Shown: positions 5,876 through 22,823 of the stretch, one piece after another
Layout of the letters: each line of letters starts with the position of its first letter
Position numbering within the stretch: the stretch's first letter is position 1
Assembly (NCBI GenBank): GCA_030599585.1
Contig: JAUVNS010000010.1
Span: forward strand, 128,001 to 192,000
Direction: 5' to 3'
Source: Promethearchaeota archaeon
GTDB taxonomy: Archaea; Asgardarchaeota; Lokiarchaeia; Sigyniarchaeales; SOKP01
DNA: 64,000 bases
Program-made: the position numbers and the translations under genes
The notes under the pieces: generated by a model
Told to the model about the DNA's origin: nothing
What the model saw: only the letters and a program-made list of their open reading frames with translations
Databases searched by the model: none

Positions 5876-6919
5876 TTATCTAATCTTTAAATATATATGA
5901 TTTCGGGCATCTACTAATTTGAAATTACTGTAATTATTAAAAAGGGTCTCAGTTTTACCCAAAATTAGTAACCCCCCTAATTCTAAATGTCTATCGATTA
6001 TTTTAAGGAAACTATCACGATTTTCTCTATTAAAATATATTAAAAGATAACGACATAATATGATATCATATTTCCATCTATTCTGATGCCCTTTTGTTAT
6101 ATCTTCACAGAAAAAATCTACTTTTCTTTTAATGTCCTCAGTTAAAATATATTTATTTCCAAAATATTCATTTTCCTTACTAAAATATCTTTTTTCGAAG
6201 TACTTTGAAGTCTCTTTAACTGAATCATCATTATATACGGCTTTGTGTGCTTTATCAATTGCCAACTTATCTATATCAGAAGCAACAATTTTGTATTGAG
6301 GGAATGATTTAATTTGTTTTTCAAGATTATTCAGAATCATAGCTATCGTATAAGGCTCTTCACCAGTAGCACATGGACAGGACCATATTTTAATTGATTT
6401 ATTATTTAATTTAGGATTGTTTATTTTTTTATAGAGTGATGTCTCTTTTACGTAATATTTATTTTGTACAAGGTAACGATTTGAGTTTAACCTTTTGCTT
6501 GAAATTCCTTTAATTGAAGACTTGTTAACTTTTTCCTTATTTTTTTGTTCATTTTTGTTCTTTTTTTTTATTTTTGATGGATCGGGTTTAAAATCATAAA
6601 ATAAAGTATTATTTCTAGAATTAAAACACTCAATAAATATATTATTTAATCGTTCAAACAAATCCCAGTTTCTAAAGAAGTAAGTATAATTTATACTAAA
6701 TCGATTAAAAAAAATTTCTAATTCTTTCGGATTAGAATTTATATAACTGTAATACTCTTCTATTGATTTGCATTTTACGCGTATCATTCTAGCTTTTATC
6801 CTCCTTTCAATAAAATTTCTTCTGTAATAGTCGAAATTTAATTTTGTCTCTTGATGTAATAAGCTAATTAACTTCTTATAGGGATTTTCCTTTATTTTTA
6901 TTTGATCAAATGTTAGTAT
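5876..6919 (-). CDS. cheR: Chemotaxis methyltransferase CheR (probable ATA start at 6919, upstream of track ATG 6787)
   Basis: TYFFR, IWSCPCATGEEPYT, ASDID, YDIILCR. Frame stays open 5' of 6787, encoding KKLISLLHQETKLNFDYYRRNFIERRIKAR (CheR N-domain), and GGTGAT precedes the ATA. Confidence 0.9.
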   Translation of the reverse strand: MLTFDQIKIKENPYKKLISLLHQETKLNFDYYRRNFIERRIKARMIRVKCKSIEEYYSYINSNPKELEIFFNRFSINYTYFFRNWDLFERLNNIFIECFNSRNNTLFYDFKPDPSKIKKKNKNEQKNKEKVNKSSIKGISSKRLNSNRYLVQNKYYVKETSLYKKINNPKLNNKSIKIWSCPCATGEEPYTIAMILNNLEKQIKSFPQYKIVASDIDKLAIDKAHKAVYNDDSVKETSKYFEKRYFSKENEYFGNKYILTEDIKRKVDFFCEDITKGHQNRWKYDIILCRYLLIYFNRENRDSFLKIIDRHLELGGLLILGKTETLFNNYSNFKLVDARNHIYLKIR

Positions 6920-6930
6920 TTTCGATCACC

Positions 6931-7467
6931 TTAACTTTCGAGTATTTTATCAATCCTAACAATTCTTCTTTCAATATGTTCGAATGAATATTTTATATGT
7001 AATTGAATCTCTCTTATTTCTGATATTATCTTCTTAATTTGAGATTTCTCAGATTTTGATAACCTAAATTCTGCTTGATTGTTATAAATTTTATTTAATG
7101 GAGTTCTATCCTTCAAGATCTGCTCCTTAACCATACTCTTTCTTGATTGCCCTGGATAATCTAAATCTTGATTCCTATCGTTAATTTCTTCTAAAATAGT
7201 TTTGAAGTCTTCAGGCTCATGATTTTGTTTAATTACTTCATATTTAAATTTATAAAAATCTTTCTTACTCTTTAATTTTCCCGCCCAGTTTGCCGCAATA
7301 TATCGATGGAATAAGCGAGAATTACGACCGGCCCATATCCAGATAAGGTTTAAGTTTTTATCTATAACTAAATAAACACCATCATCCCCAAAAAGTTGAT
7401 CAGGTGCTTTTGTCAAAGTCTCTCCAATAACTTGATAAGTGGAATCATAATAACTGGATTTTACCAT
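6931..7467 (-). CDS. Single gelsolin-homology domain + C-terminal coiled coil
   Basis: DGVYLVID...IWIWAGRNS...YIAANWAGKL...EVIKQNHEPEDF matches the gelsolin repeat pattern. C-term amphipathic helix. Strong SD GGAGGT. Confidence 0.8.
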   Translation of the reverse strand: MVKSSYYDSTYQVIGETLTKAPDQLFGDDGVYLVIDKNLNLIWIWAGRNSRLFHRYIAANWAGKLKSKKDFYKFKYEVIKQNHEPEDFKTILEEINDRNQDLDYPGQSRKSMVKEQILKDRTPLNKIYNNQAEFRLSKSEKSQIKKIISEIREIQLHIKYSFEHIERRIVRIDKILES

Positions 7468-7598
7468 TATTTTTACCTCCTTTAGCCAAATATCTTCTCT
7501 TGAATAAATTTTATTTATTACTATTTTGATCGTCTAAACTATAAAAAAAAATTTAGAAAGATAATTATTCATCATGGGACCTTATCTTTATTATTGCT

Positions 7599-9524
7599 TT
7601 AAGCATAAAACTCTAATAAAGCATCCAATAACTCTTGTAATGTGTCGATATTTGGAATATATAAGAATGTCCCAGTTACTTTGAAATCTGTTATAATAAC
7701 ATTCGTAGTAATTACTAAAGAGAGTTTCTTAAGCAATCCAATTTCATCTCTTAAAATACTGAACAGCTGTTTCCCTGTATCAAGGTGTATATCAGGGGGG
7801 TCTGTCATTAACCGTATTCCTAATAAGTCACCAATTGCGCTAATATAATTACTTCCGAGAATATGACCTAATTCACTCATAGCACTGCGATAAAGCTCAG
7901 GAAAGTCATCAACTGTCTTAAATTTCTTTCGTAAGTCAATTTGTGTTTTCTTTTTATCATCAACGATAATTGATGTTAAATCTATCATATCTTTAACGCT
8001 AAAAATTGTAAGAACCGTTGCTTTAGTTTTTCCTGTGACGTTACTCCAAGCGACTAAGAGTTTATCAGTTGCTCGACTTAGTGTATCAGCATACTTATCT
8101 AATTCAACCATTTCTACCGAAGGTATATTAATAACTACTCTTTGATTTACCATTTGAGCTAGAGCATTAGCGGCATTCCCTGCTCCAATATTTCCTATTT
8201 CTTGTAATGCATCTCTCTGAAGCTCTGTTAATTTGATTGATTCCAAATTAAGCGATAAATCAGTTGTTGCTTCATCATTCGGTGCCTTAAATGTGACTCC
8301 TAATTTTCTGAACATCCCTTCCAGAGTTCCTTTGTCAGGTATAAAGAAAAACACTCCTGTTAGCTTAAAATCACTTATTTTTATCGTGGTTTTAATTAAT
8401 ACTACATATTTCGATATCGATTGCAATTCTTTACCTAAAAATTCTCCTAATAATCCAGAATCACTCATAGCAAATTCCGGAATGTCTATCATCATTTTAG
8501 TACCCGTTAAATCAGCTAGTGCAGATACATAATGACCAGCCATAATGTTTCCCATCTCAGTTATAGTAGATATAGCAAACGAATCAAGGTCCTCTTTGGA
8601 ATTGATTTTTTCAGGATCAAATTTAGAGTCATCACCAGTTAAATTAGCAACTAATTTCAATAGCGGCTTCATTTCAAAGATGTTAAGAATCGTTGATTGA
8701 GAAGGTTTATTGACATGGCAAAATATTCCACAAACCTTTTCACTAGATCCTTGAAACTGTTCTGATAATTTATCGCTGGAAATAATCCCTACATCTGTAA
8801 GTTGAACATCGATTTTTTTCTTTATTAAAACAGATAAAGCGGTCACAGCATTACCTACACCAATATTTCCAATTTCTTGTAAAGTATCAAGTTGATATTC
8901 ACTTAGTTCGTACTCCTTTTTCGGAGTTGGGCTTTTAGCTTTTTTATGGAGAACAACATTTTGAGATTTCGATTTTTTCTCCTTTATTTTCTTCGGGAGT
9001 ATTCCAGGTTGAGAAAGCGCTTTTGGAATCTTCTCTTGTTTTTTAAGCTGTTTAATTTTCAAGTTAGATAAATACCATTCGATAAGTGAATCTAAATCTA
9101 ATAAGATTAATGGTTGATCATTTAGCGTTCCAATCAATTTTACTAGATCCAGGTCTAAGTTTGTTTTTACAATTGTACTGTTTTGTCTAAAATTTCCTAA
9201 AGAAAATTTCTTAACACCATGGACATCATCCACTAATAAACCTAAATTTAAACCTTTATACTCTAATAGAAGTATTCTAGAATTTTCGGATAAATTATAT
9301 TCCGTTTTATTTCCATATATTATATGCCTTAGAGATAATACTGTATACACTGTACCCCTAATATCAATTATTCCTAATACTGATTCTTCAGCTAAAGGTA
9401 TTGGAATAATTTCATTATTTGGAACATAAATTTCTTTAACATTTTCTACTTCAAGTAAATATTGTTCATTTTGAACCTCTATTACTACTGAAGTGATACT
9501 ATTCATATTTTCAGCTTCCATCAT
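7599..9524 (-). CDS. CheW-CheC-CheC fusion protein
   Basis: N-term CheW (IPIPLAEESVLGIIDIRG, GLLVDDVHGV), Lys-rich linker, two CheC domains (EIGNIG/EMGNIM; EIGNIG/ELGHIL). Confidence 0.9.
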   Translation of the reverse strand: MMEAENMNSITSVVIEVQNEQYLLEVENVKEIYVPNNEIIPIPLAEESVLGIIDIRGTVYTVLSLRHIIYGNKTEYNLSENSRILLLEYKGLNLGLLVDDVHGVKKFSLGNFRQNSTIVKTNLDLDLVKLIGTLNDQPLILLDLDSLIEWYLSNLKIKQLKKQEKIPKALSQPGILPKKIKEKKSKSQNVVLHKKAKSPTPKKEYELSEYQLDTLQEIGNIGVGNAVTALSVLIKKKIDVQLTDVGIISSDKLSEQFQGSSEKVCGIFCHVNKPSQSTILNIFEMKPLLKLVANLTGDDSKFDPEKINSKEDLDSFAISTITEMGNIMAGHYVSALADLTGTKMMIDIPEFAMSDSGLLGEFLGKELQSISKYVVLIKTTIKISDFKLTGVFFFIPDKGTLEGMFRKLGVTFKAPNDEATTDLSLNLESIKLTELQRDALQEIGNIGAGNAANALAQMVNQRVVINIPSVEMVELDKYADTLSRATDKLLVAWSNVTGKTKATVLTIFSVKDMIDLTSIIVDDKKKTQIDLRKKFKTVDDFPELYRSAMSELGHILGSNYISAIGDLLGIRLMTDPPDIHLDTGKQLFSILRDEIGLLKKLSLVITTNVIITDFKVTGTFLYIPNIDTLQELLDALLEFYA

Positions 9525-9544: not shown

Positions 9545-10390
9545 TTATTTATTTTCTTTTAACATAATTCCTTTCCAAATAAGCTCAACTTCTTGTTCTT
9601 CGCCACTTATTTCCGAGAGGTAATTTTGCTGGACAAATATTGAAATTTGACCTCCATCCGAGTACTCATAAACGTAATCAAGTACATCATCTATAGATGT
9701 AAAATTAAAACCAGCAATTTTCAGCTCTGAACTACCAACTAACAATAAATCCTCACCATTAAAAGGACGGTCTTCATCATTCCATTCAACCCAAATTTCA
9801 GAAGCAATTTCAAGATCGTTTATAACTAAATCCTTTTCCAGGGGGATATTACGATAAGTCTTATAAGCAGCAAAAATAATTCGATTTGGAACTTTTCCCG
9901 TCTTTTTAAAGTATTTTTTTATAGCTTGTACCCCAGAATTAAAATTATTTAAATCAAGAATATCATAACAGACGACATAGGTCAATTCACCATCTTCCAT
10001 CTCTATAACGAAGTCCAAATTATCATTAGATTCATTGGAAATATTAACCTGGAAATTCTCAATTATAAATCCTTGAACATATTTAAAATATTGATAAAAT
10101 CGCCATTTTACCCCAAAATTTGAATTATCTTCTCTGCTGATAAAAATCTGATATAAAGATTTTAGTTGAGATGCTTTTAGGCTTTTTAAGTCATCAATCG
10201 TGTCATAGTCGTCACCAATATTTTTTAAGTTCATTCTTGCTGATTGTTTCTTTTTAGTAGGTTTACTTGAAAGTTCATCCAAAAAGATTTTAAGTTCTCC
10301 TTTTGTAAATGACGGTTTAATTTGGCTTACCAAATAATTTAAATATTTATCCGATTTATCTTGTAAAGTTTCATAATATTGAAAATTCAT
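9545..10390 (-). CDS. Hypothetical protein in che operon (possible degenerate PD-(D/E)XK-like fold)
   Basis: 281-aa ORF, SD AGGAG, tight spacing to neighbours. LDFVIE..DGELTYVVC only loosely resembles a restriction-endonuclease-like core. Confidence 0.6.
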   Translation of the reverse strand: MNFQYYETLQDKSDKYLNYLVSQIKPSFTKGELKIFLDELSSKPTKKKQSARMNLKNIGDDYDTIDDLKSLKASQLKSLYQIFISREDNSNFGVKWRFYQYFKYVQGFIIENFQVNISNESNDNLDFVIEMEDGELTYVVCYDILDLNNFNSGVQAIKKYFKKTGKVPNRIIFAAYKTYRNIPLEKDLVINDLEIASEIWVEWNDEDRPFNGEDLLLVGSSELKIAGFNFTSIDDVLDYVYEYSDGGQISIFVQQNYLSEISGEEQEVELIWKGIMLKENK

Positions 10391-12527: not shown

Positions 12528-14624
12528 TTAAAATTTAAATGTTCGAATTTCATTTGTTTTTGAAGTTATAATTGTTAATACATCGAGAATTAAGCAGACA
12601 GAGCCATCATCTAAAATAGTTGAACCCAATATATCTCTTGAATCAGAATAATTAGACTTAAATGGCTTGACAACAATATCTGTTTGTTGCATTATATCAT
12701 CGACTATAAAAACTGCTGAATTCATATCATCCTTTTTACATAAAATTGCAACTTTAGATTTTGAATGTAATCTCAAATCTTCGTTCGTAGCATCTTTAAA
12801 TTGAAAATGTTGCTCTAATTGGATTGCAGGAATTAACTTTGAATTAAATTTGTAATAAAGAGTATTTTCTACATATTCTGCCTTTTCTTGTTTAAATTGA
12901 AATATTGTTTCTATGTATTCTATTGGAATAGCAAATAGCTCTCCTGCTACACGAAGTAATTGTGCTTTAAGGATTGCTCTAGAAAAAGGCACTATTAAAG
13001 TGAAAGTAGTCCCAGCATCCTTTTCTGAATGAATTTTTAGAGATCCACCTAATTCTCTTATTTTTTCTACTACAATCGCTAGCCCTATTCCTCTACCTGA
13101 AATCAAATTAGCTCCTGAAAGAGTAGAAAAATTAGGTTGAAGAATATACTGGTTTAAAACATTCGTATTTAAATGCTCTACTTCTTCTTTTAAAAATAAG
13201 CCTTTTTGTACAAGAACATCCTTAACACGATCATAATCAATCCCTTGTCCATCATCTGTTACTTCGATATATATTGATCCAGCACTCCTGTATGTCTTCA
13301 GTCGTAATAATCCTATTTGATTTTTAGTTTTCTTCATCCTTAATTCAGGAGATTCAATTCCATGATAAACAGCATTTCTAAGAAGGTGAACTAATGGGGA
13401 ATTTAGCTCCTCTAAGATTTTTCTATCAATTTCAACATTAGTACCTTCTAAAATAAATCTTATTTTTTTCCCTGTTTCTTTTGCTACATCGCGTATTAAT
13501 CTTTTATACTTAACAAACGTTGTCTCAACTCTTACAAGTTTTAATCCAAAGATTAATTCTTGAATATCCAAGAATGGTTTCTCCATATTGCTAACAATGG
13601 CACCTAAAACTCTATCTTGTCTTTCTTTTAGAGTCCTTGTTATTTGATTCTTTAAAATTACAATTTCTCCAAAATAATTCATTAATTTTTCAAGAATATC
13701 GACATCAACTTTTACACTAGAAATCTTAGTCCCTTCATCTGAATAATCTTCAAATGCATGCGAACTTGTTTCAATTTCACCATCAATGAATTCATCATCA
13801 TCCTCACTTTCAACATGATATGACTCTCTGCTACGCTTAGTTGCTTTTTTTTCCAATATTCGCGTCCATTTTAAGTCAAATTCGTTAAGTAATCCTTCAA
13901 ATTCCTTATTTTCTAGTTTGTTAATTGCTTTATTTTCAATCTCTAAAATTTCATTTAAGATTTTTACTATTTCTTTATCTGTTGAGTGGCTAATATAATA
14001 TATCTCAAAATCATTAATGATTTCACCTTGTTCTAATGATTCTGGATCAGGGACACCCCAACATATCTGACCTTTTTCAGTCAAAGCCCTAAAAATAATA
14101 AAAAGTCGAACTTTCTTAAAGGCACATGTAGATTGAAGGCGAATATATACTTTATAAAATTTATTTGATTTGTCACCTAAAATAGCACTAAATTTGTTCG
14201 GTTGTATATGTTTTATAAAAGACATTTCTGAACTACTATCAAATGAGTCAAAACTGTCTCTTAAATCAAGTAGTAAGCTCGGATCTATGTCAGTCATATC
14301 ACCATTTTTAACATTATTTAGAACACTACGAAGAACTTCAAGGCTTTCAAAAAGCATATTAATAATCGAATCACTCAAATCGACTGAATCTTGATTATCT
14401 TTTATGCTTTGTAAAAAACTCTCAAAGTAATGGCAAAATTTAGAAGTATTATTAAAACCTGCCATTGCTGTTAATCCTTTTAAGGTATGAAAGGTGTAAA
14501 AAAGATTTTGAATTGGCTTCAACGCTTTTGGATTTTGTTCAATTTTCAATATTTCTCCTTCTGTTTGCAGGATGAGATCTTCTGTCTCACTTACAAAGAG
14601 CTTCATATCGTCTTGAGATATCAA
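12528..14624 (-). CDS. cheA: Chemotaxis histidine kinase CheA
   Basis: Hpt FHTLKG, P2 domain, HLLRNAVYHGIE, DDGQGID, SGRGIGL, C-term CheW-like P5. TTG start after GGTGAT. Confidence 0.96.
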   Translation of the reverse strand: MISQDDMKLFVSETEDLILQTEGEILKIEQNPKALKPIQNLFYTFHTLKGLTAMAGFNNTSKFCHYFESFLQSIKDNQDSVDLSDSIINMLFESLEVLRSVLNNVKNGDMTDIDPSLLLDLRDSFDSFDSSSEMSFIKHIQPNKFSAILGDKSNKFYKVYIRLQSTCAFKKVRLFIIFRALTEKGQICWGVPDPESLEQGEIINDFEIYYISHSTDKEIVKILNEILEIENKAINKLENKEFEGLLNEFDLKWTRILEKKATKRSRESYHVESEDDDEFIDGEIETSSHAFEDYSDEGTKISSVKVDVDILEKLMNYFGEIVILKNQITRTLKERQDRVLGAIVSNMEKPFLDIQELIFGLKLVRVETTFVKYKRLIRDVAKETGKKIRFILEGTNVEIDRKILEELNSPLVHLLRNAVYHGIESPELRMKKTKNQIGLLRLKTYRSAGSIYIEVTDDGQGIDYDRVKDVLVQKGLFLKEEVEHLNTNVLNQYILQPNFSTLSGANLISGRGIGLAIVVEKIRELGGSLKIHSEKDAGTTFTLIVPFSRAILKAQLLRVAGELFAIPIEYIETIFQFKQEKAEYVENTLYYKFNSKLIPAIQLEQHFQFKDATNEDLRLHSKSKVAILCKKDDMNSAVFIVDDIMQQTDIVVKPFKSNYSDSRDILGSTILDDGSVCLILDVLTIITSKTNEIRTFKF

Positions 14625-14668
14625 ATTATCACCTTCACCTATTTCCTTCTTATTTTTATTTTATTTTT

Positions 14669-15046
14669 TTATTTTCCAGCAACTCTCTCTAAAACATCTT
14701 CGATTTGGTCTGCTTTAAAGGGTTTCTGAATAAAATCCTTTGCGCCCTTTTTAGCAGCTTCTAAAACTAACGCCTCTTGACCCAAGGCAGACACAATAAC
14801 AATAATTGCATCGGGATCGAAACTTAAAATTTTCTCTGTAGTTTCTATACCTCCTTGTTCAGGCATAACTAAATCCATTGTTACTAAGTCAGGCTTGAGC
14901 TCTTGATACAAAGAAACTGCTTCAACACCGTTTCTAGCTTCTGCGATAACTTCACCAATTTCTGTTTTATTGATGATCTTCTTCAACATATTTCGTGTAA
15001 ATTGGGCGTCGTCAACTACCAAAATTTTCTTTTTATTTTTTGTCAT
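14669..15046 (-). CDS. cheY: Chemotaxis response regulator CheY
   Basis: VVDDAQFTR, TMDLVMP, VSALGQ, FIQKPF; lies between cheW and cheA. Confidence 0.95.
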   Translation of the reverse strand: MTKNKKKILVVDDAQFTRNMLKKIINKTEIGEVIAEARNGVEAVSLYQELKPDLVTMDLVMPEQGGIETTEKILSFDPDAIIVIVSALGQEALVLEAAKKGAKDFIQKPFKADQIEDVLERVAGK

Positions 15047-15595
15047 TTAATCAACTCTTTTTTTTTGCATTTTTATTTCTTCTTTTTTAATTGAAATATA
15101 GTCAATTTCATTAAGCAAATTGCTTAAATCAAGTAAAATTCTAGGTCTATCCTTGAATTTTATTATACCTTTAATATTTTCCATACCCACACTTGTTTGG
15201 AATATTGGACTCAATCCCACAATATTTTCTGCATTGACATGAGCAATACTAACAATTTGATCAGCAAAAAACCCGATAAAAACTCCAGCTATATCCAAAA
15301 TAATAATATATTTCTTTTTCCTCTTAGTTTTTACTTTAGATAAAGCGAGTTTTGATTTATATAAATAATTCTCGTGTAAATTTAGAACTTTTTCAAGGTT
15401 TAATATGTGAATTATTTCTCCTCGATAATTGTAGATGCCATCGATGAAATCAAGGCTCTTCGGTAGTTTTCTAATTTGACCCGATCTTACAATTTCTTTT
15501 ATTGTGGAAAGTTCAATTGCAAATTCTTCTAAACCAATTTCAAAAATTATAACCGATTTTTTTTCTAATTCATTTTTTATTTGTTCTTGATACAT
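15047..15595 (-). CDS. cheW: Chemotaxis coupling protein CheW
   Basis: IFEIGLEEFAI..IKEI, LPKSLDFIDGIYNYRGEII, GFFADQI, RILLDL. Confidence 0.92.
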   Translation of the reverse strand: MYQEQIKNELEKKSVIIFEIGLEEFAIELSTIKEIVRSGQIRKLPKSLDFIDGIYNYRGEIIHILNLEKVLNLHENYLYKSKLALSKVKTKRKKKYIIILDIAGVFIGFFADQIVSIAHVNAENIVGLSPIFQTSVGMENIKGIIKFKDRPRILLDLSNLLNEIDYISIKKEEIKMQKKRVD

Positions 15596-17915: not shown

Positions 17916-18287
17916 ATGATGGCATCCGTTTTTATTGTTGAAGATGACGTTTTCATATTAAGATTATATGAAATTTTTTTAAGATCGAGCAAATTTTCTG
18001 TAATTGGAAAGGCAAAAAATGGAGATGAAGCTGTAGCTTCTTATAAATTAATGAGTACAAAACCTGATTTGATAATTATGGACAATCGTATGCCAGTTAA
18101 AAGTGGTATTGAAGCATTAAAAGAAATTCTCGAAATTGATAGTCAGGCAAAAATTATGATAGTGAGTGCAGATCGTAGTATTGAAAAAATAGCGAAATCT
18201 GTTGGAGCTGTAGCGTTTATGGAAAAACCATTTTCGTTGAAAATATTAGTTGAGAATATTAATAATGTTATTACAAATTGTGTTTAA
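17916..18287 (+). CDS. Stand-alone CheY-like receiver protein
   Basis: VEDD, IMDNRMP, VSAD, FMEKPF. Confidence 0.9.
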   Translation: MMASVFIVEDDVFILRLYEIFLRSSKFSVIGKAKNGDEAVASYKLMSTKPDLIIMDNRMPVKSGIEALKEILEIDSQAKIMIVSADRSIEKIAKSVGAVAFMEKPFSLKILVENINNVITNCV

Positions 18288-18330
18288 CTTTACATCATTA
18301 AATTTGAAAGTTTGAGATGATTTAAAAATA

Positions 18331-18525
18331 ATGAATATGGATATGAAAAAAAAGATTATTTATACTCCAAATATATGTCCCTATTGCCAATCAACAGAAA
18401 TAATCCCGAAAAAGGAATTTATCAAAGATAATTACCTCAAGATCCCATACTATTGCAAAAAATGTGGAAAAGTTTCTAAAGCCATATATTTTATTGAATA
18501 CCAAGAAACTGAGGGTTGGTATTAG
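18331..18525 (+). CDS. Small zinc-ribbon protein
   Basis: CPYC...CKKC pair in a 64-aa ORF co-oriented with its neighbours. Confidence 0.65.
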   Translation: MNMDMKKKIIYTPNICPYCQSTEIIPKKEFIKDNYLKIPYYCKKCGKVSKAIYFIEYQETEGWY

Positions 18526-18595
18526 TTTGATTAGGTTTAAACTATATTATTTAATTTGGATTATGATATTTAGTTGAGGATTTAGGTTTGTTATT

Positions 18596-20524
18596 TTGGC
18601 ATTATTAACATTACTACAAGCAGATATAGATGAAGTTATTAAGCAGTTACAAGTACTAACAGGCTTAAAATTTGATAATTATTTATATAATTTTATTGAA
18701 AAAAGAATAATTTATCGCATTCAAAACTTAAAATTAAATTCCCACGTGGAATATTTAAAATATCTTAAGTCGAATCCGAAAGAAATTGAGGAATTTCTTG
18801 AACGATTTACCATTAATCACACTTATTTTTTCAGAGATTTAGATGTTTTCAAAGCATTAGAAAATTATTTTAAGAATTATAAAACAAAATCGAAAATACG
18901 CGTATGGTCTGCCGCTTGTGCAACGGGAGATGAAGCCTATTCAGTTGCATTGATTTTAGATAAATTAAGCAAACGCGTTAAAAATTTTTCTGATTTTAAA
19001 GTAATAGCGTCTGATATTGATAAAAGGGCAATTGGAGTTGCCAAAAAAGGAAAATATTCTGAATTTTCTTTACATACCACTCCTGATGAATACATTCAAG
19101 AATACTTCAAACGAAAGGAAACACCTTACAGTCCAGAGTTTAAATTGGATGAAGTCTTAATGAAGAAGGTTGAATTCATCGAAGAGGATATAACTATAGG
19201 ACATAAAAAGAAGATAAAATATGACATCGTTTTATGTAGAAATTTCATGATTTATCTTAATAAAAAAGCGCGTAATGAACTCTTAAGGATCATCGAATCC
19301 AAAATGATTAATGGGGGTTTGTTGATTTTAGGGTTAAGCGAATCTTTATTAGGTGTAAAAAGTAGCTTTAAGCCAATTGATATTAAGCATCGTTTCTTTA
19401 TTAAAAGAAGTTCCAATTTCATTGAATCTAATAAGAAACAAATTGAAGAATTAATAAAAAAGACCAAGATACAAAAGCCAATTTTCATAGAGAATAATCT
19501 AACTAATTTTGATGAGCTTGAATTAAAAAATAATATTAATGAAACAACTCTAAAAATAGAAGAAGAAAAATTAAACAAACAGATTAAATACAAATCGATT
19601 GAAGATCAACGAAAGACCATTGAAAAAAGAGCACATGGATTAATTAAAAGAGAACTGATTATACAAGAACAAGAAAAGATTTTATTAAAGAATCTTTCAT
19701 ATTTAAAAAAAAGAGAGAAGGATATATTAAAAAAATCGAAATATATGGAAAAATTAATTCTATTTATTAAAGAACAAGAAAAGGAATTAAATCTCTTCAT
19801 TAGGAATATGGAGTTCTTTTCCAATCAATTAGAAGAAAAGGAAAATCACTTGAATTATAAAGAGAAGCAAATAAATCATCAATTCAATCAAATTGGTTAT
19901 TATACAAATCAATTATTACAAAAAGAAAAAACACTTCCAAAAAAAGAACATAAACATATAGGTGACTATTCACTTGAGGTTGTGGATGAGAAACGAATTG
20001 ATCACATAATTAATCCTAATAAAGATCTAGAATTAACTATTCCAGTGGGATATTATGGAGTTTTGAACTTGCATATTCAAAATGAAACTGCTACTAAGTT
20101 CGGCGTTAATTCTTTAGGAGCAGGAATAGCCTTGATATTAAAGGACGATTCTAATAAAATATATGCATTTTCTCATTCAAGATTTCCCAATTCTTCAGCT
20201 TCAAAGCAAGGATATCATCTCGTTTCTCCTCATTCTTTTATAAATACTTCTGTAATAAGTTTGTTAAATACAATGCTTTATCATGGTGCTGAAAAGAATG
20301 AAATTAAAGCAATTGTTATAGGAGGCGCACGATTGTTTAATGATTTTGATTTAACATTTCAAGAGAATATTGATTCTATCAAAAGAGAATTAAAGAAAAA
20401 TAGTATTTTAACTGAAATCGAAGATTTGGGAGGCTTAAGTGAAAAAGCAGTAAAGTACGATGTAATAAATAATTCTCTTTATGTAAAAAGAGCTTGGGAA
20501 TTTGAATTTAGGAAAATTAATTAA
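18596..20524 (+). CDS. CheR methyltransferase - coiled coil - CheD-like fusion
   Basis: N-term CheR (TYFFRD, VWSAACATGDEAYS, CRNFMIY), central E/K-rich heptads, C-term CheD-like (SLGAGIAL, SHSRFP, IGGARLF, EDLGG). Confidence 0.88.
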   Translation: MALLTLLQADIDEVIKQLQVLTGLKFDNYLYNFIEKRIIYRIQNLKLNSHVEYLKYLKSNPKEIEEFLERFTINHTYFFRDLDVFKALENYFKNYKTKSKIRVWSAACATGDEAYSVALILDKLSKRVKNFSDFKVIASDIDKRAIGVAKKGKYSEFSLHTTPDEYIQEYFKRKETPYSPEFKLDEVLMKKVEFIEEDITIGHKKKIKYDIVLCRNFMIYLNKKARNELLRIIESKMINGGLLILGLSESLLGVKSSFKPIDIKHRFFIKRSSNFIESNKKQIEELIKKTKIQKPIFIENNLTNFDELELKNNINETTLKIEEEKLNKQIKYKSIEDQRKTIEKRAHGLIKRELIIQEQEKILLKNLSYLKKREKDILKKSKYMEKLILFIKEQEKELNLFIRNMEFFSNQLEEKENHLNYKEKQINHQFNQIGYYTNQLLQKEKTLPKKEHKHIGDYSLEVVDEKRIDHIINPNKDLELTIPVGYYGVLNLHIQNETATKFGVNSLGAGIALILKDDSNKIYAFSHSRFPNSSASKQGYHLVSPHSFINTSVISLLNTMLYHGAEKNEIKAIVIGGARLFNDFDLTFQENIDSIKRELKKNSILTEIEDLGGLSEKAVKYDVINNSLYVKRAWEFEFRKIN

Positions 20525-21183
20525 ATAATCACTAATAAATTCGGTTCCAAAATATTGCCGAACAATATTAAAAATCCAATTTTAGCGTCCTATAACAGAC
20601 TTTATGATAAATTTTACAAAGCTCGATATGTGCTAAATCATCTTAGCCGTAACGGAAGCATAAGTGTACTGATTAAAATAGTCAATGATTGCGTAAGAAA
20701 TAGCTTGAGCGAGCGCCATTTTATTGTGTTCGTTAGTGTTTGAATCTTCCACCACAAGGTCAAATTTTACAGTAAATCTGTAATAAATGATCGAAGAAGA
20801 AGAACCTCAAGTATATTGTCATCTTAGCATGATGGGATAATTCCTGACTGATTTTCTAGGTTTCAAAATACCAGATTATAAAGACACTTAATTATGTCAT
20901 ACCTATTATTGCGAGCCAAAAATATAACATTGGAAGGTATGGTGATAATTTGGAACCCATATTTCGCAATAATATGGTATACGCACTTGTAAAAGTTAGC
21001 AAAATCAGAAATATCAGTAATCTCGGTTAATGCTTTAAATTGCCAATAAGAAATATATCCTAAGAGAGTTATAAATTTTCGAGAAAGATCGAGAAAGAAT
21101 GGGGATAAATGATTATATTTAAGGTAATAATTTAAGATCGGGAATGAGACTTTCACGAACATAATAATAATAAAAAATTCTAT

Positions 21184-21225
21184 AAAAAAGTGAAAAAAAA
21201 ATGAAAAAAAAATGAAAAAAAAAAA
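21184..21225 (-). terminator. Oligo-T tract (3x TTTTTTTTTCA-like) directly after the MCP stop
   Basis: Plus strand reads gtgaaaaaaaaatgaaaaaaaaatgaaaaaaaaaaa; archaeal terminators are U-tracts. Confidence 0.5.
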
Positions 21226-21227
21226 CT

Positions 21228-22823
21228 TTATCGTTTTAATTTAGATTTTAATGAAAGTTTCTTCTTTTCTTTTTGTTCCTTGATTGGTTTTGACTCAGTT
21301 CCTTCTGAACCATCAGATTTGTATTGAGTTAAATTACTTTTTAAATCTTCTGCTAGAACACCTAATTTATCAGCTGTAGCAGCGATTTCTTCCATGGATG
21401 CTGTCTGTTCTTCTGCGGATGCGCTAATGCCTTCAATAGATCCCGTAGTAGATTCAAGTCTTTTAAGAATATCATTGATTTTTGAACCCGTAGTTCTAAC
21501 AGAGTTTCTTGATTCTTCAGCAAGTTTTCTTACTTCATCAGCTACAACTGCAAATCCTCTACCATGTTCTCCAGCACGACCAGCTTCTATACTTGCGTTT
21601 AACGCTAGTAAGTTTGTTTGTTCAGAAATAGATACTATTATCTCCATAACTCTTTTAATCTCGGTCGAAGATAGCATTATAGTTTGACTATCATTTGCAA
21701 CTTCTTGTGTTGTTGAGGCGATTTCTTCTGATGCAGCGTTAACTTCACTTGCACTAGCAGCTAATTCTGTAGCTATATTTGCTACAATAATACTTGCTTC
21801 AGATCCTGCTTTTAGCACATTTTCCATATTGGAGGTAACTCTTGCAATACTTTTGGTAGTAGGTATCGCTATTATTAATCCAAGTACAACAACAGCTCCT
21901 AATGCTACGAAAGTGATAACATAGGCTATAAATACACCTAGTTGAGCACTAGCAATTTCTTCGTCTATTTCGGCTTCTGTTTCATGATGTATTTCAGTTA
22001 AGTCTGCGGATAAATGTTCATAATCTAATTCAACATCTTCTAATTTTGCATCAATGTGATCTTTCATGTCAAAGACTCCATCCGCTCCTACAACCATTTC
22101 AGTAAAAGCATGATGGACAGTTTCAATCTCCGCGATCTTATCTGTAATTGTTGCGTTTCCAGCATAAAAAGTTTCAATAACTCCTATTACATTATCGAAA
22201 GTAACAACTGAAGTATTAAATTCTAAATCAGTATCTTCATGGATTCCTTCTAAGTACTCAAACGTTAAATATATCTGTTCGTTAACATAACTTCTCATCA
22301 AAGTTGCATTTAATTTCATCTGAACATCACTAATTAATGCAATCAACTCGTCAATTAAAATATCTATTTGCTCTCGCATATCAATACTCGAATTTAAAGC
22401 TGCGCTTATTTCTTGGATATGAACGATAATTCCATGCTCGTCGCTAGTAATATCATCGATAATGCAATCAAAATCTGTCCCAATATCAACAAGTTCATCA
22501 CCATGCTCTGGATGCAATGTTCTTAATAAATCTAAAGATGAATTAAAAATTTCAGCATGCTCCAAAATATGGTCTATGATACTTTCCTCTTCGGCATGAT
22601 GCGATTCTCCTCCGTTATAGAGGGTTTCAAAAGTTTCTCGAATAATCAACTCCGATTCATATTGCATTGTATCTACGGCTTCCATAATAACAAAATCCTT
22701 TTGGGTAAACTCTGTAAGATACCCATCCAAAGAATTTATTTGAATGGTGCCAACGATTCCGATTGCAAAAGAAAAAGCAATAAGAACGGCAAATCCAATA
22801 GTCATTCTTCTTTTAATATTCAT
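21228..22823 (-). CDS. Methyl-accepting chemotaxis protein (2 TM, helical extracellular sensor, short signalling domain)
   Basis: Tip [38 protein letters not shown]; methylation-type motifs ASEEIAS and [12 protein letters not shown]; two hydrophobic helices. Confidence 0.96.

Follow-up and report, generated by a model that had tools for sequence, protein, structure and literature searches.

What does a gene with a gelsolin-like product do inside a chemotaxis gene cluster of an Asgard archaeon? The gene, here called GelCC for its gelsolin domain and coiled coil, lies in a 64,000-nucleotide stretch of a Promethearchaeota genome (assembly GCA_030599585.1, contig JAUVNS010000010.1, positions 128,001 to 192,000; hereafter the window) and encodes a protein of 178 amino acids. 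In L. ossiferum, che genes have been reported together with 15 MCPs and putative receptor arrays (Rodrigues-Oliveira et al. 2022, Nature, PMC9834061), and Lokiactin-dependent crawling via protrusion dynamics has been described in the same organism (Nature 2026, PMC13716822), five of whose nine gelsolin-homology proteins co-precipitate with Lokiactin (PMC13716822). Neither study ties the che system to actin crawling, and the crawling paper (PMC13716822) makes no mention of chemotaxis. Full-text searches of the literature found no report of a gelsolin gene inside a che cluster. A first-pass annotation of the window, made from the sequence alone, proposed GelCC as the most direct candidate for an effector that turns che signalling into actin dynamics. 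Here we ask how far the gene, its fold and its genomic company bear this out.

The cluster reads along the minus strand as a 282-aa protein, CheW, CheY, CheA, a 678-aa DUF11/Ig-repeat protein, a 281-aa protein, the CheW-CheC-CheC fusion and GelCC, and it continues 3' of GelCC with CheR, CheB, CheD, CheC, a roadblock-Ras GTPase and a HisKA-REC protein (Table 1). Pfam matches thus leave GelCC where the first-pass annotation had located it, between CheW-CheC-CheC and cheR. It is the only member of the cluster that is homologous to a known actin-binding protein. The 281-aa protein was examined as a possible better CheY target or actin link, but its AF2 model (pLDDT 72) gave only weak PD-(D/E)xK/restriction-endonuclease-like matches (Z<=7.6), and it does not resemble the 312-aa protein that adjoins the gelsolin paralogue described below. 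The che region continues past a TFIIB gene (window 17916-22823) with a stand-alone REC protein, a CheR-CheD fusion and a chemoreceptor, which was the sole match in a PF00015 profile search of the genome.

Table 1. Features of GelCC and of the surrounding che region, in window coordinates
Feature	Position	Strand	Basis
cheR	5876-6919	minus	In-frame extension conserved in 18 loci; CheR_N needs the extension
GelCC, gelsolin-domain and coiled-coil protein gene, 178 aa	6931-7467, including stop codon	minus	ORF with ATG
C-terminal amphipathic heptad helix of GelCC, aa 138-177, candidate coiled coil/docking helix	6937-7056	minus	AF2 and conservation
Variable linker of GelCC, predicted disordered, aa 110-137	7057-7140	minus	Conservation and pLDDT
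DLxYPGQSR motif after the gelsolin domain, aa 101-109	7141-7167	minus	Alignment
Gelsolin/cofilin-fold domain of GelCC, aa 5-98	7174-7455	minus	AF2 model, Foldseek, VIA-align, profile vs PDB
SD-like GGAGGT	7475-7480	minus	7 nt 5' of the GelCC ATG, direct sequence reading
CheW-CheC-CheC fusion gene, 5' neighbour of GelCC	7599-9524	minus	Pfam CheW and four CheC stretches
281-aa core-cluster protein, upstream of CheW-CheC-CheC	9545-10390	minus	Conserved; no Pfam match
cheA, cheY and cheW of the GelCC cluster	12528-15595	minus	Pfam; syntenic in relatives
CheA	12528-14624	minus	Pfam
CheY	14669-15046	minus	Pfam
CheW	15047-15595	minus	Pfam
Stand-alone REC protein	17916-18287	plus	
CheR-CheD fusion	18596-20524	plus	
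MCP (chemoreceptor), 4HB and MCPsignal	21228-22823	minus	Pfam MCPsignal, 103 bits

Database searches returned 170 full-length homologues of the ~21-kDa GelCC protein, at 99% coverage and 44-97% identity, all of them from Asgard archaea (Loki/Promethearchaeota-type assemblies). When a profile was searched against 1.84 billion representatives, the full-length orthologues amounted to only ~20 clusters, and matches in the ESM Atlas were confined to Promethearchaeota clusters. In an alignment of 34 sequences, the start Met is conserved and conservation is strongly domain-structured. By this pattern of conservation, GelCC is a real gene under purifying selection. The ribosome-binding site of its own that the first-pass annotation had ascribed to GelCC was found as GGAGGT; an SD-like site is uncommon among relatives, where it precedes the gene in 6 of 32. 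Instead, a TATA-like box lies ~27 nt 5' of the ATG in many of them, which suggests that there GelCC has its own promoter or a leaderless mRNA. GelCC could be the first gene of a second transcription unit that also comprises CheR, CheB, CheD, CheC and the GTPase, possibly with a leaderless mRNA. An oligo-T run lies before GelCC in the gap at 7468-7598 of the window and in the equivalent gaps of loci L002, L010, L017 and L024.

A gelsolin pattern had been suspected in the first ~95 residues, and structure prediction places the fold at aa 5-98, where a five-stranded sheet packs on one long helix and, towards the C-terminus, a short one. The AF2 model of GelCC (mean pLDDT 78; 84-91 across most of the gelsolin domain) has the gelsolin strand-helix order, followed by a single long helix at aa 138-177. 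A Foldseek search with the predicted model, set beforehand as the test by which the assignment could fail, found a clear gelsolin fold: the top match in the PDB was actin-bound ProGel (7c2f_B; E 8e-7, probability 1.00), and all 50 matches at E<=1e-3 were gelsolin-family chains. In VIA-align, GelCC superimposed on 7c2f_B over 85 of ProGel's 88 residues (Z 12.5, rmsd 1.9 Å); next came the D1 domains of Loki, Heimdall and Thor 2DGel and eukaryotic G1-G6 domains (Z 10-11), and 124 chains scored Z>=8. A profile of the GelCC family searched against the PDB also matched ProGel (7c2f_B, E 4.4e-7), as well as 2DGel3, Heimdall 2DGel and villin at E<1e-3. The outcome of the suggested HMM check was divided, in that PF00626 matches aa 26-88 of GelCC itself below the Pfam cut-off (14.8 bits vs 21, E 0.025), whereas it was found in 21 of the 34 orthologues (best E 1.9e-4). 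The gelsolin motif D...W-x-G, which is replaced by WP in cofilins (PMC7444086), is present in GelCC, and none of its residues D36, W45 and G47 varies among the 34 sequences.

In solved gelsolin-actin complexes, the long helix is the actin-binding element (PMC7444086), and the first-pass annotation had named its conservation as a point to check. We observed that this helix, S50 to K66, is near-invariant in GelCC, with a mean top-residue frequency of 0.95 (aa 50-66) vs 0.79 for the whole domain (aa 10-96), and that it is the most conserved of all segments. F53, H54, N60 and W61 are invariant on the helix, and ProGel differs at these positions. As a type-2 Ca2+ site, we considered an Asp in the GD-x-Y strand together with a Glu with which the long helix begins. 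In HMMER alignments, the Asp of GDCYL in 2DGel3 corresponds to G30, a position that is mostly Gly in the GelCC family, and the D-E pair of the 2DGel3 site corresponds to the invariant F53-H54. Since both ligands are replaced, the gelsolin domain of GelCC should be, and on this alignment probably is, Ca2+-independent and of the ProGel type.

The remainder of the protein falls into three parts. In the DLxYPGQSR motif, L102, Y104, P105, G106, S108 and R109 show no or almost no variation (top-residue frequency 0.78 across aa 100-109). The linker that had been read from the sequence follows at aa 110-137; it is variable (mean top-residue frequency 0.31) and modelled with low confidence (pLDDT <50 at aa 116-133). 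A C-terminal coiled coil of ~40 residues had also been read there, and it corresponds to one helix at aa 138-177 (pLDDT 87-93; top-residue frequency 0.71) with conserved a/d heptads. Residues 144-176 have a clean 3-4 hydrophobic repeat, in which positions 144, 147/148, 151, 154, 158, 165, 169, 172 and 175/176 are 100% hydrophobic across the family, and the best heptad phase has a hydrophobic occupancy of 0.82 at a/d vs 0.18 elsewhere. The modelled helix fits a coiled coil, be it a homo-oligomer or a packing on helices of a partner. Inspection of the helix by eye found neither the phosphatase spacing of CheC/CheX (E-x2-N) or CheZ (D-x3-Q) nor a FliM-N-like motif. A WH2-like LKDR in the linker (aa 118-121; 7105-7116) was rejected as a family feature, as just three of the 34 aligned sequences have it, those of the window, P0003 and P0006. 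LKDR follows a helix at 108-119, where 2DGel proteins carry a WH2-like LRRV/LKDV motif.

Counted from the ATG of cheR at 6787, a gap of 143 nt would separate this gene from GelCC. We rejected an intergenic gap of this size because the stretch codes for the N-terminal domain of CheR. An open in-frame extension 5' of the ATG (6788-6925) has the same length in 18 loci and encodes conserved CheR N-terminal helices (…LNFDYYRRNFIERRIKAR), and the CheR_N match (51 bits) spans the ATG and is obtained only when the extension is included. The conserved extension and this match bear out the distance of 11 nt between the GelCC stop and the cheR start that the first-pass annotation had given. In relatives, cheR starts at GTG or TTG, 11-12 nt past the GelCC stop. 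The window and a 97%-identical metagenomic locus (L001) have ATA (6917-6919) at the cheR start codon, and the open frame of the window that codes for the conserved CheR N-terminal domain contains no ATG, GTG or TTG. Judging from the reading frame, cheR probably uses a non-canonical start here; the alternative is that CheR is N-truncated and starts at ATG 6787. A "GGAGG" near 6800 was rejected as an SD as it lies inside ERR codons.

Scanning one genome per species yielded 36 related loci, 34 of them with upstream DNA. The CheW-CheC-CheC gene is located directly 5' of GelCC in all 34, at a gap of 66-201 nt and a protein identity of 44-57%. GelCC keeps this position throughout about five genera, at ~50% identity, and the block comprising the 282-aa protein, CheW, CheY, CheA, DUF11, the 281-aa protein, CheW-CheC-CheC and GelCC recurs in relatives. 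The next gene 3' of GelCC varies: it is CheR in 18 loci, CheB in 8, CheD in 3 and a Ras-like GTPase in 3. A fixed upstream block combined with varying downstream genes places GelCC in the core signalling block rather than in the adaptation block.

We then considered the phyletic distribution in an even set of 301 Asgard genomes. Orthologues of GelCC (>200 bits) are present in 14 genomes, all within the GTDB family of the window, and the orthologous CheA (>700 bits) is present in 15, including all 14 that have GelCC, kin genomes not being independent in these counts. The lone genome with CheA only is 84% complete and in 520 contigs. Other types of CheA (30-37% identity) are encoded in 31 genomes, none of which has GelCC. 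Within the genus of the window, the che cluster was found in 1 of 28 sampled genomes, the window's own; as read from this distribution, the cluster including GelCC is gained or lost as a unit. A lack of che linkage in relatives had been named beforehand as evidence against the effector proposal, and the linkage held, both in gene order and in co-occurrence with CheA. By gene order and distribution, GelCC is a constant, co-inherited member of the che operon in one Loki-type Asgard family. Fusions between gelsolin and che domains were found neither among longer proteins nor in the profile search of 1.84 billion representatives, which is a weak negative.

Six further gelsolin-domain genes are present in the genome of the window, so that GelCC is a specialised extra copy and not the general gelsolin of the cell. 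The genome also encodes Lokiactin and three further actin-family proteins. Among the six gelsolin-domain genes, at loci L037, L039 and L041, are those for a 338-aa 2DGel that ends in a CxxC...CxxC Zn-ribbon, a 376-aa single-domain gelsolin with two C-terminal SAP-like repeats and a 308-aa single-domain gelsolin. A paralogous family of ~180 aa has a GelCC-like architecture, with 41% identity in the gelsolin domain, an acidic residue in place of GelCC H54 and a different C-terminal helix. Its genes occur in other Loki-family genomes (L045:7992-8540, L046, L047, L048, L049 and L051), in a conserved neighbourhood without che genes that is composed of Roadblock/LC7 (142 aa), a 312-aa protein, the paralogue, a FIST-domain sensor (449 aa), LuxE and LuxC. 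This neighbourhood may be a second signalling-linked mini-gelsolin module.

Does the che system of this organism have another output? Neither the genome of the window (completeness 100%, contamination 8.9%) nor any of 121 family members was matched by the Pfam models for CheF and archaellin. As an argument for a non-archaellar output this absence is weak, because the same models match almost no Asgard genome (CheF 0/301; archaellin above cut-off 2/301) and scattered archaellum parts have been reported. According to a 2026 survey (PMC13705601), L. ossiferum has genes for an archaellum, and in Asgard archaea such genes are scattered. Matches to the T2SSE family in the genome comprise PINA and a pair of divergent ATPases, FlaI/TadA-like but with scores well short of the FlaI cut-off, by which a non-canonical type IV filament machine is neither proven nor excluded. 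One of these ATPases, on contig C15 (L055:9046-11223), has 725 aa, scores 96 bits vs a FlaI cut-off of 550 and adjoins a 373-aa unknown protein and a small GTPase; the other, on contig C11 (L053:8438-10060), has 541 aa and ends at the contig edge. Other candidate outputs within the cluster are the roadblock-Ras GTPase, the 282-aa protein, the 281-aa protein and the DUF11 protein.

Akil et al. 2020 defined the Asgard gelsolin types ProGel, 1DGelX and 2DGel (PMC7444086). ProGel (PDB 7C2F), the best structure and profile match to GelCC, is likewise a single gelsolin/cofilin-fold domain with D...W-x-G and without Ca2+ sites. However, ProGel is a bare domain of ~90 aa, whereas GelCC adds DLxYPGQSR, a linker and a 40-aa heptad helix; the two are ~22-24% identical, the surface residues of the long helix differ, and no che linkage has been reported for ProGel. 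Actin binding by ProGel is very weak (Kd ~337 µM; PMC7444086). GelCC shares its architecture with Thor 1DGelX and L. ossiferum B35_GelX, in which a gelsolin domain at the N-terminus precedes a C-terminal region with a predicted coiled coil. Thor 1DGelX, which consists of one gelsolin domain and a coiled-coil domain X, binds actin with a Kd of 7.7 µM and nucleates and severs without Ca2+ (PMC7444086), in agreement with the earlier statement that Asgard one-domain gelsolins with C-terminal additions can bind actin. It is Ca2+-independent, and GelCC likewise lacks Ca2+ ligands. Compared by description, 1DGelX is unlike GelCC in size, as it runs near actin on SDS-PAGE (~40 kDa), at about twice the mass of GelCC. 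The likely 1DGelX-type genes of this genome are other ORFs, those of 376 and 308 aa, and no che linkage has been reported for 1DGelX. Relative to the Asgard single-domain gelsolins already described, GelCC represents a novel form dedicated to che.

Two signalling systems offer further comparisons. In the archaeal output from CheY-P via CheF to ArlCDE, CheF acts between the che core and the motility apparatus, and by analogy GelCC is a candidate for such a step, being an archaea-specific non-enzymatic accessory in an archaeal-type che cluster (CheA/W/Y/R/B/C/D). Unlike CheF, GelCC is not matched by CheF-arch PF04283, and its target would be actin instead of the rotary archaellum. The Frz system of Myxococcus, acting on MglA (Ras-like) and MglB (roadblock), resembles the present case in placing a non-flagellar, cytoskeleton- and GTPase-based surface motility under che-like control, and the GelCC cluster carries a roadblock-Ras GTPase. 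The likeness to Frz is an analogy only, from a different lineage and without a gelsolin-fold component.

We propose that GelCC is a dedicated Loki-type chemosensory subunit that combines a probably Ca2+-independent domain of the ProGel type, a flexible linker and a conserved coiled-coil helix. The helix would dimerise GelCC or dock it on the chemosensory complex, with the product of the invariably adjacent CheW-CheC-CheC gene as the prime candidate partner, and GelCC could thereby physically couple the receptor array and the site of CheY-P turnover to actin filaments. That GelCC contacts Lokiactin and in this way couples the chemosensory complex to actin is a prediction for which we see as much reason to believe as to doubt. 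Such coupling is supported by the matches to Asgard gelsolins, the invariant D...W-x-G, the most conserved long helix, the che linkage and the presence of Lokiactin; it is weakened by the weak actin binding of ProGel, by helix residues specific to GelCC that could serve another partner, and by the gelsolin-like domain of Sec23, which does not bind actin (PMC7444086). GelCC might act as an anchor that positions receptor arrays on the actin skeleton, a tentative proposal, or, which we consider unlikely, it might respond to signals by adjusting how filaments are severed, capped or bundled locally and so bias the dynamics of protrusions. Array anchoring fits the data as well as the signal-controlled effector role does. 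The proposal that GelCC is an effector turning che signalling into actin dynamics is thus partly supported, by homology and gene linkage; from these we infer that GelCC binds actin, how its helix would act and that CheY-P might exert control.

It is also possible, although rather doubtful in our view, that GelCC is a subunit of the chemosensory complex with no role on actin, and that its gelsolin fold mediates protein-protein interactions. GelCC could then act as a regulator or scaffold for the CheW-CheC-CheC phosphatase, or use its coiled-coil helix to join the lattice of receptor, CheA or CheW. GelCC is strictly adjacent to CheW-CheC-CheC and not to any cytoskeletal gene, and the invariant long-helix residues of the family differ from those of both ProGel and 2DGel; these points speak for this reading. 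The ~180-aa paralogue in another signalling-type neighbourhood suggests that mini-gelsolins are general signalling adaptors, and Sec23 provides the precedent of a gelsolin-like domain that does not bind actin. To our knowledge, however, no known chemosensory array has a gelsolin-fold component. The closest relatives of GelCC in sequence and structure are, moreover, all actin-binding Asgard gelsolins, and every characterised Asgard gelsolin-homology protein acts on actin (PMC7444086, PMC13716822).

Conversely, GelCC could be a free-standing mini-1DGelX, a Ca2+-independent severing, capping or bundling factor that is only co-expressed with the che genes; its C-terminal helix would bind filament sides or dimerise, and its coupling to che would be transcriptional, with no physical contact. 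The architecture of Thor 1DGelX, whose coiled-coil extension was proposed by the authors to be an F-actin side-binding element (PMC7444086), is in line with this idea, as is the TATA-like box of many relatives, given that GelCC may head its own transcription unit. Yet its perfect co-inheritance with one che type and its invariant position exceed what co-regulation usually preserves, and six other gelsolin-domain genes are available in the genome for general actin regulation; we regard a purely free-standing factor as improbable. That GelCC is a spurious ORF or a hitch-hiking chance neighbour, a notion with only the sub-threshold Pfam score of the window's protein in its favour, is refuted by the 170 full-length homologues, the conserved start, the domain-specific conservation, the confident fold and the synteny in 34 of 34 loci, and we give it virtually no credence.

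In conclusion, GelCC is a concrete candidate for what joins chemical sensing of the bacterial style to the eukaryote-like actin skeleton behind crawling in these archaea, and it provides a specific and cheaply testable hypothesis on the connection of che and actin. In the most far-reaching version of the coupling proposal, which we hold to be improbable, bacterial-style two-component chemotaxis would have been rewired from a rotary motor to actin, with CheY-P or the state of the array acting through GelCC to bias Lokiactin severing, capping or bundling and so to steer crawling. If GelCC were refuted as an actin-coupling protein, it would show that the gelsolin fold has been put to a new use within a chemosensory complex, one apart from actin. 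If the coupling is true, sensory steering of the actin cytoskeleton would predate eukaryotes, and GelCC would be part of a prokaryotic forerunner of eukaryotic chemotactic actin control.
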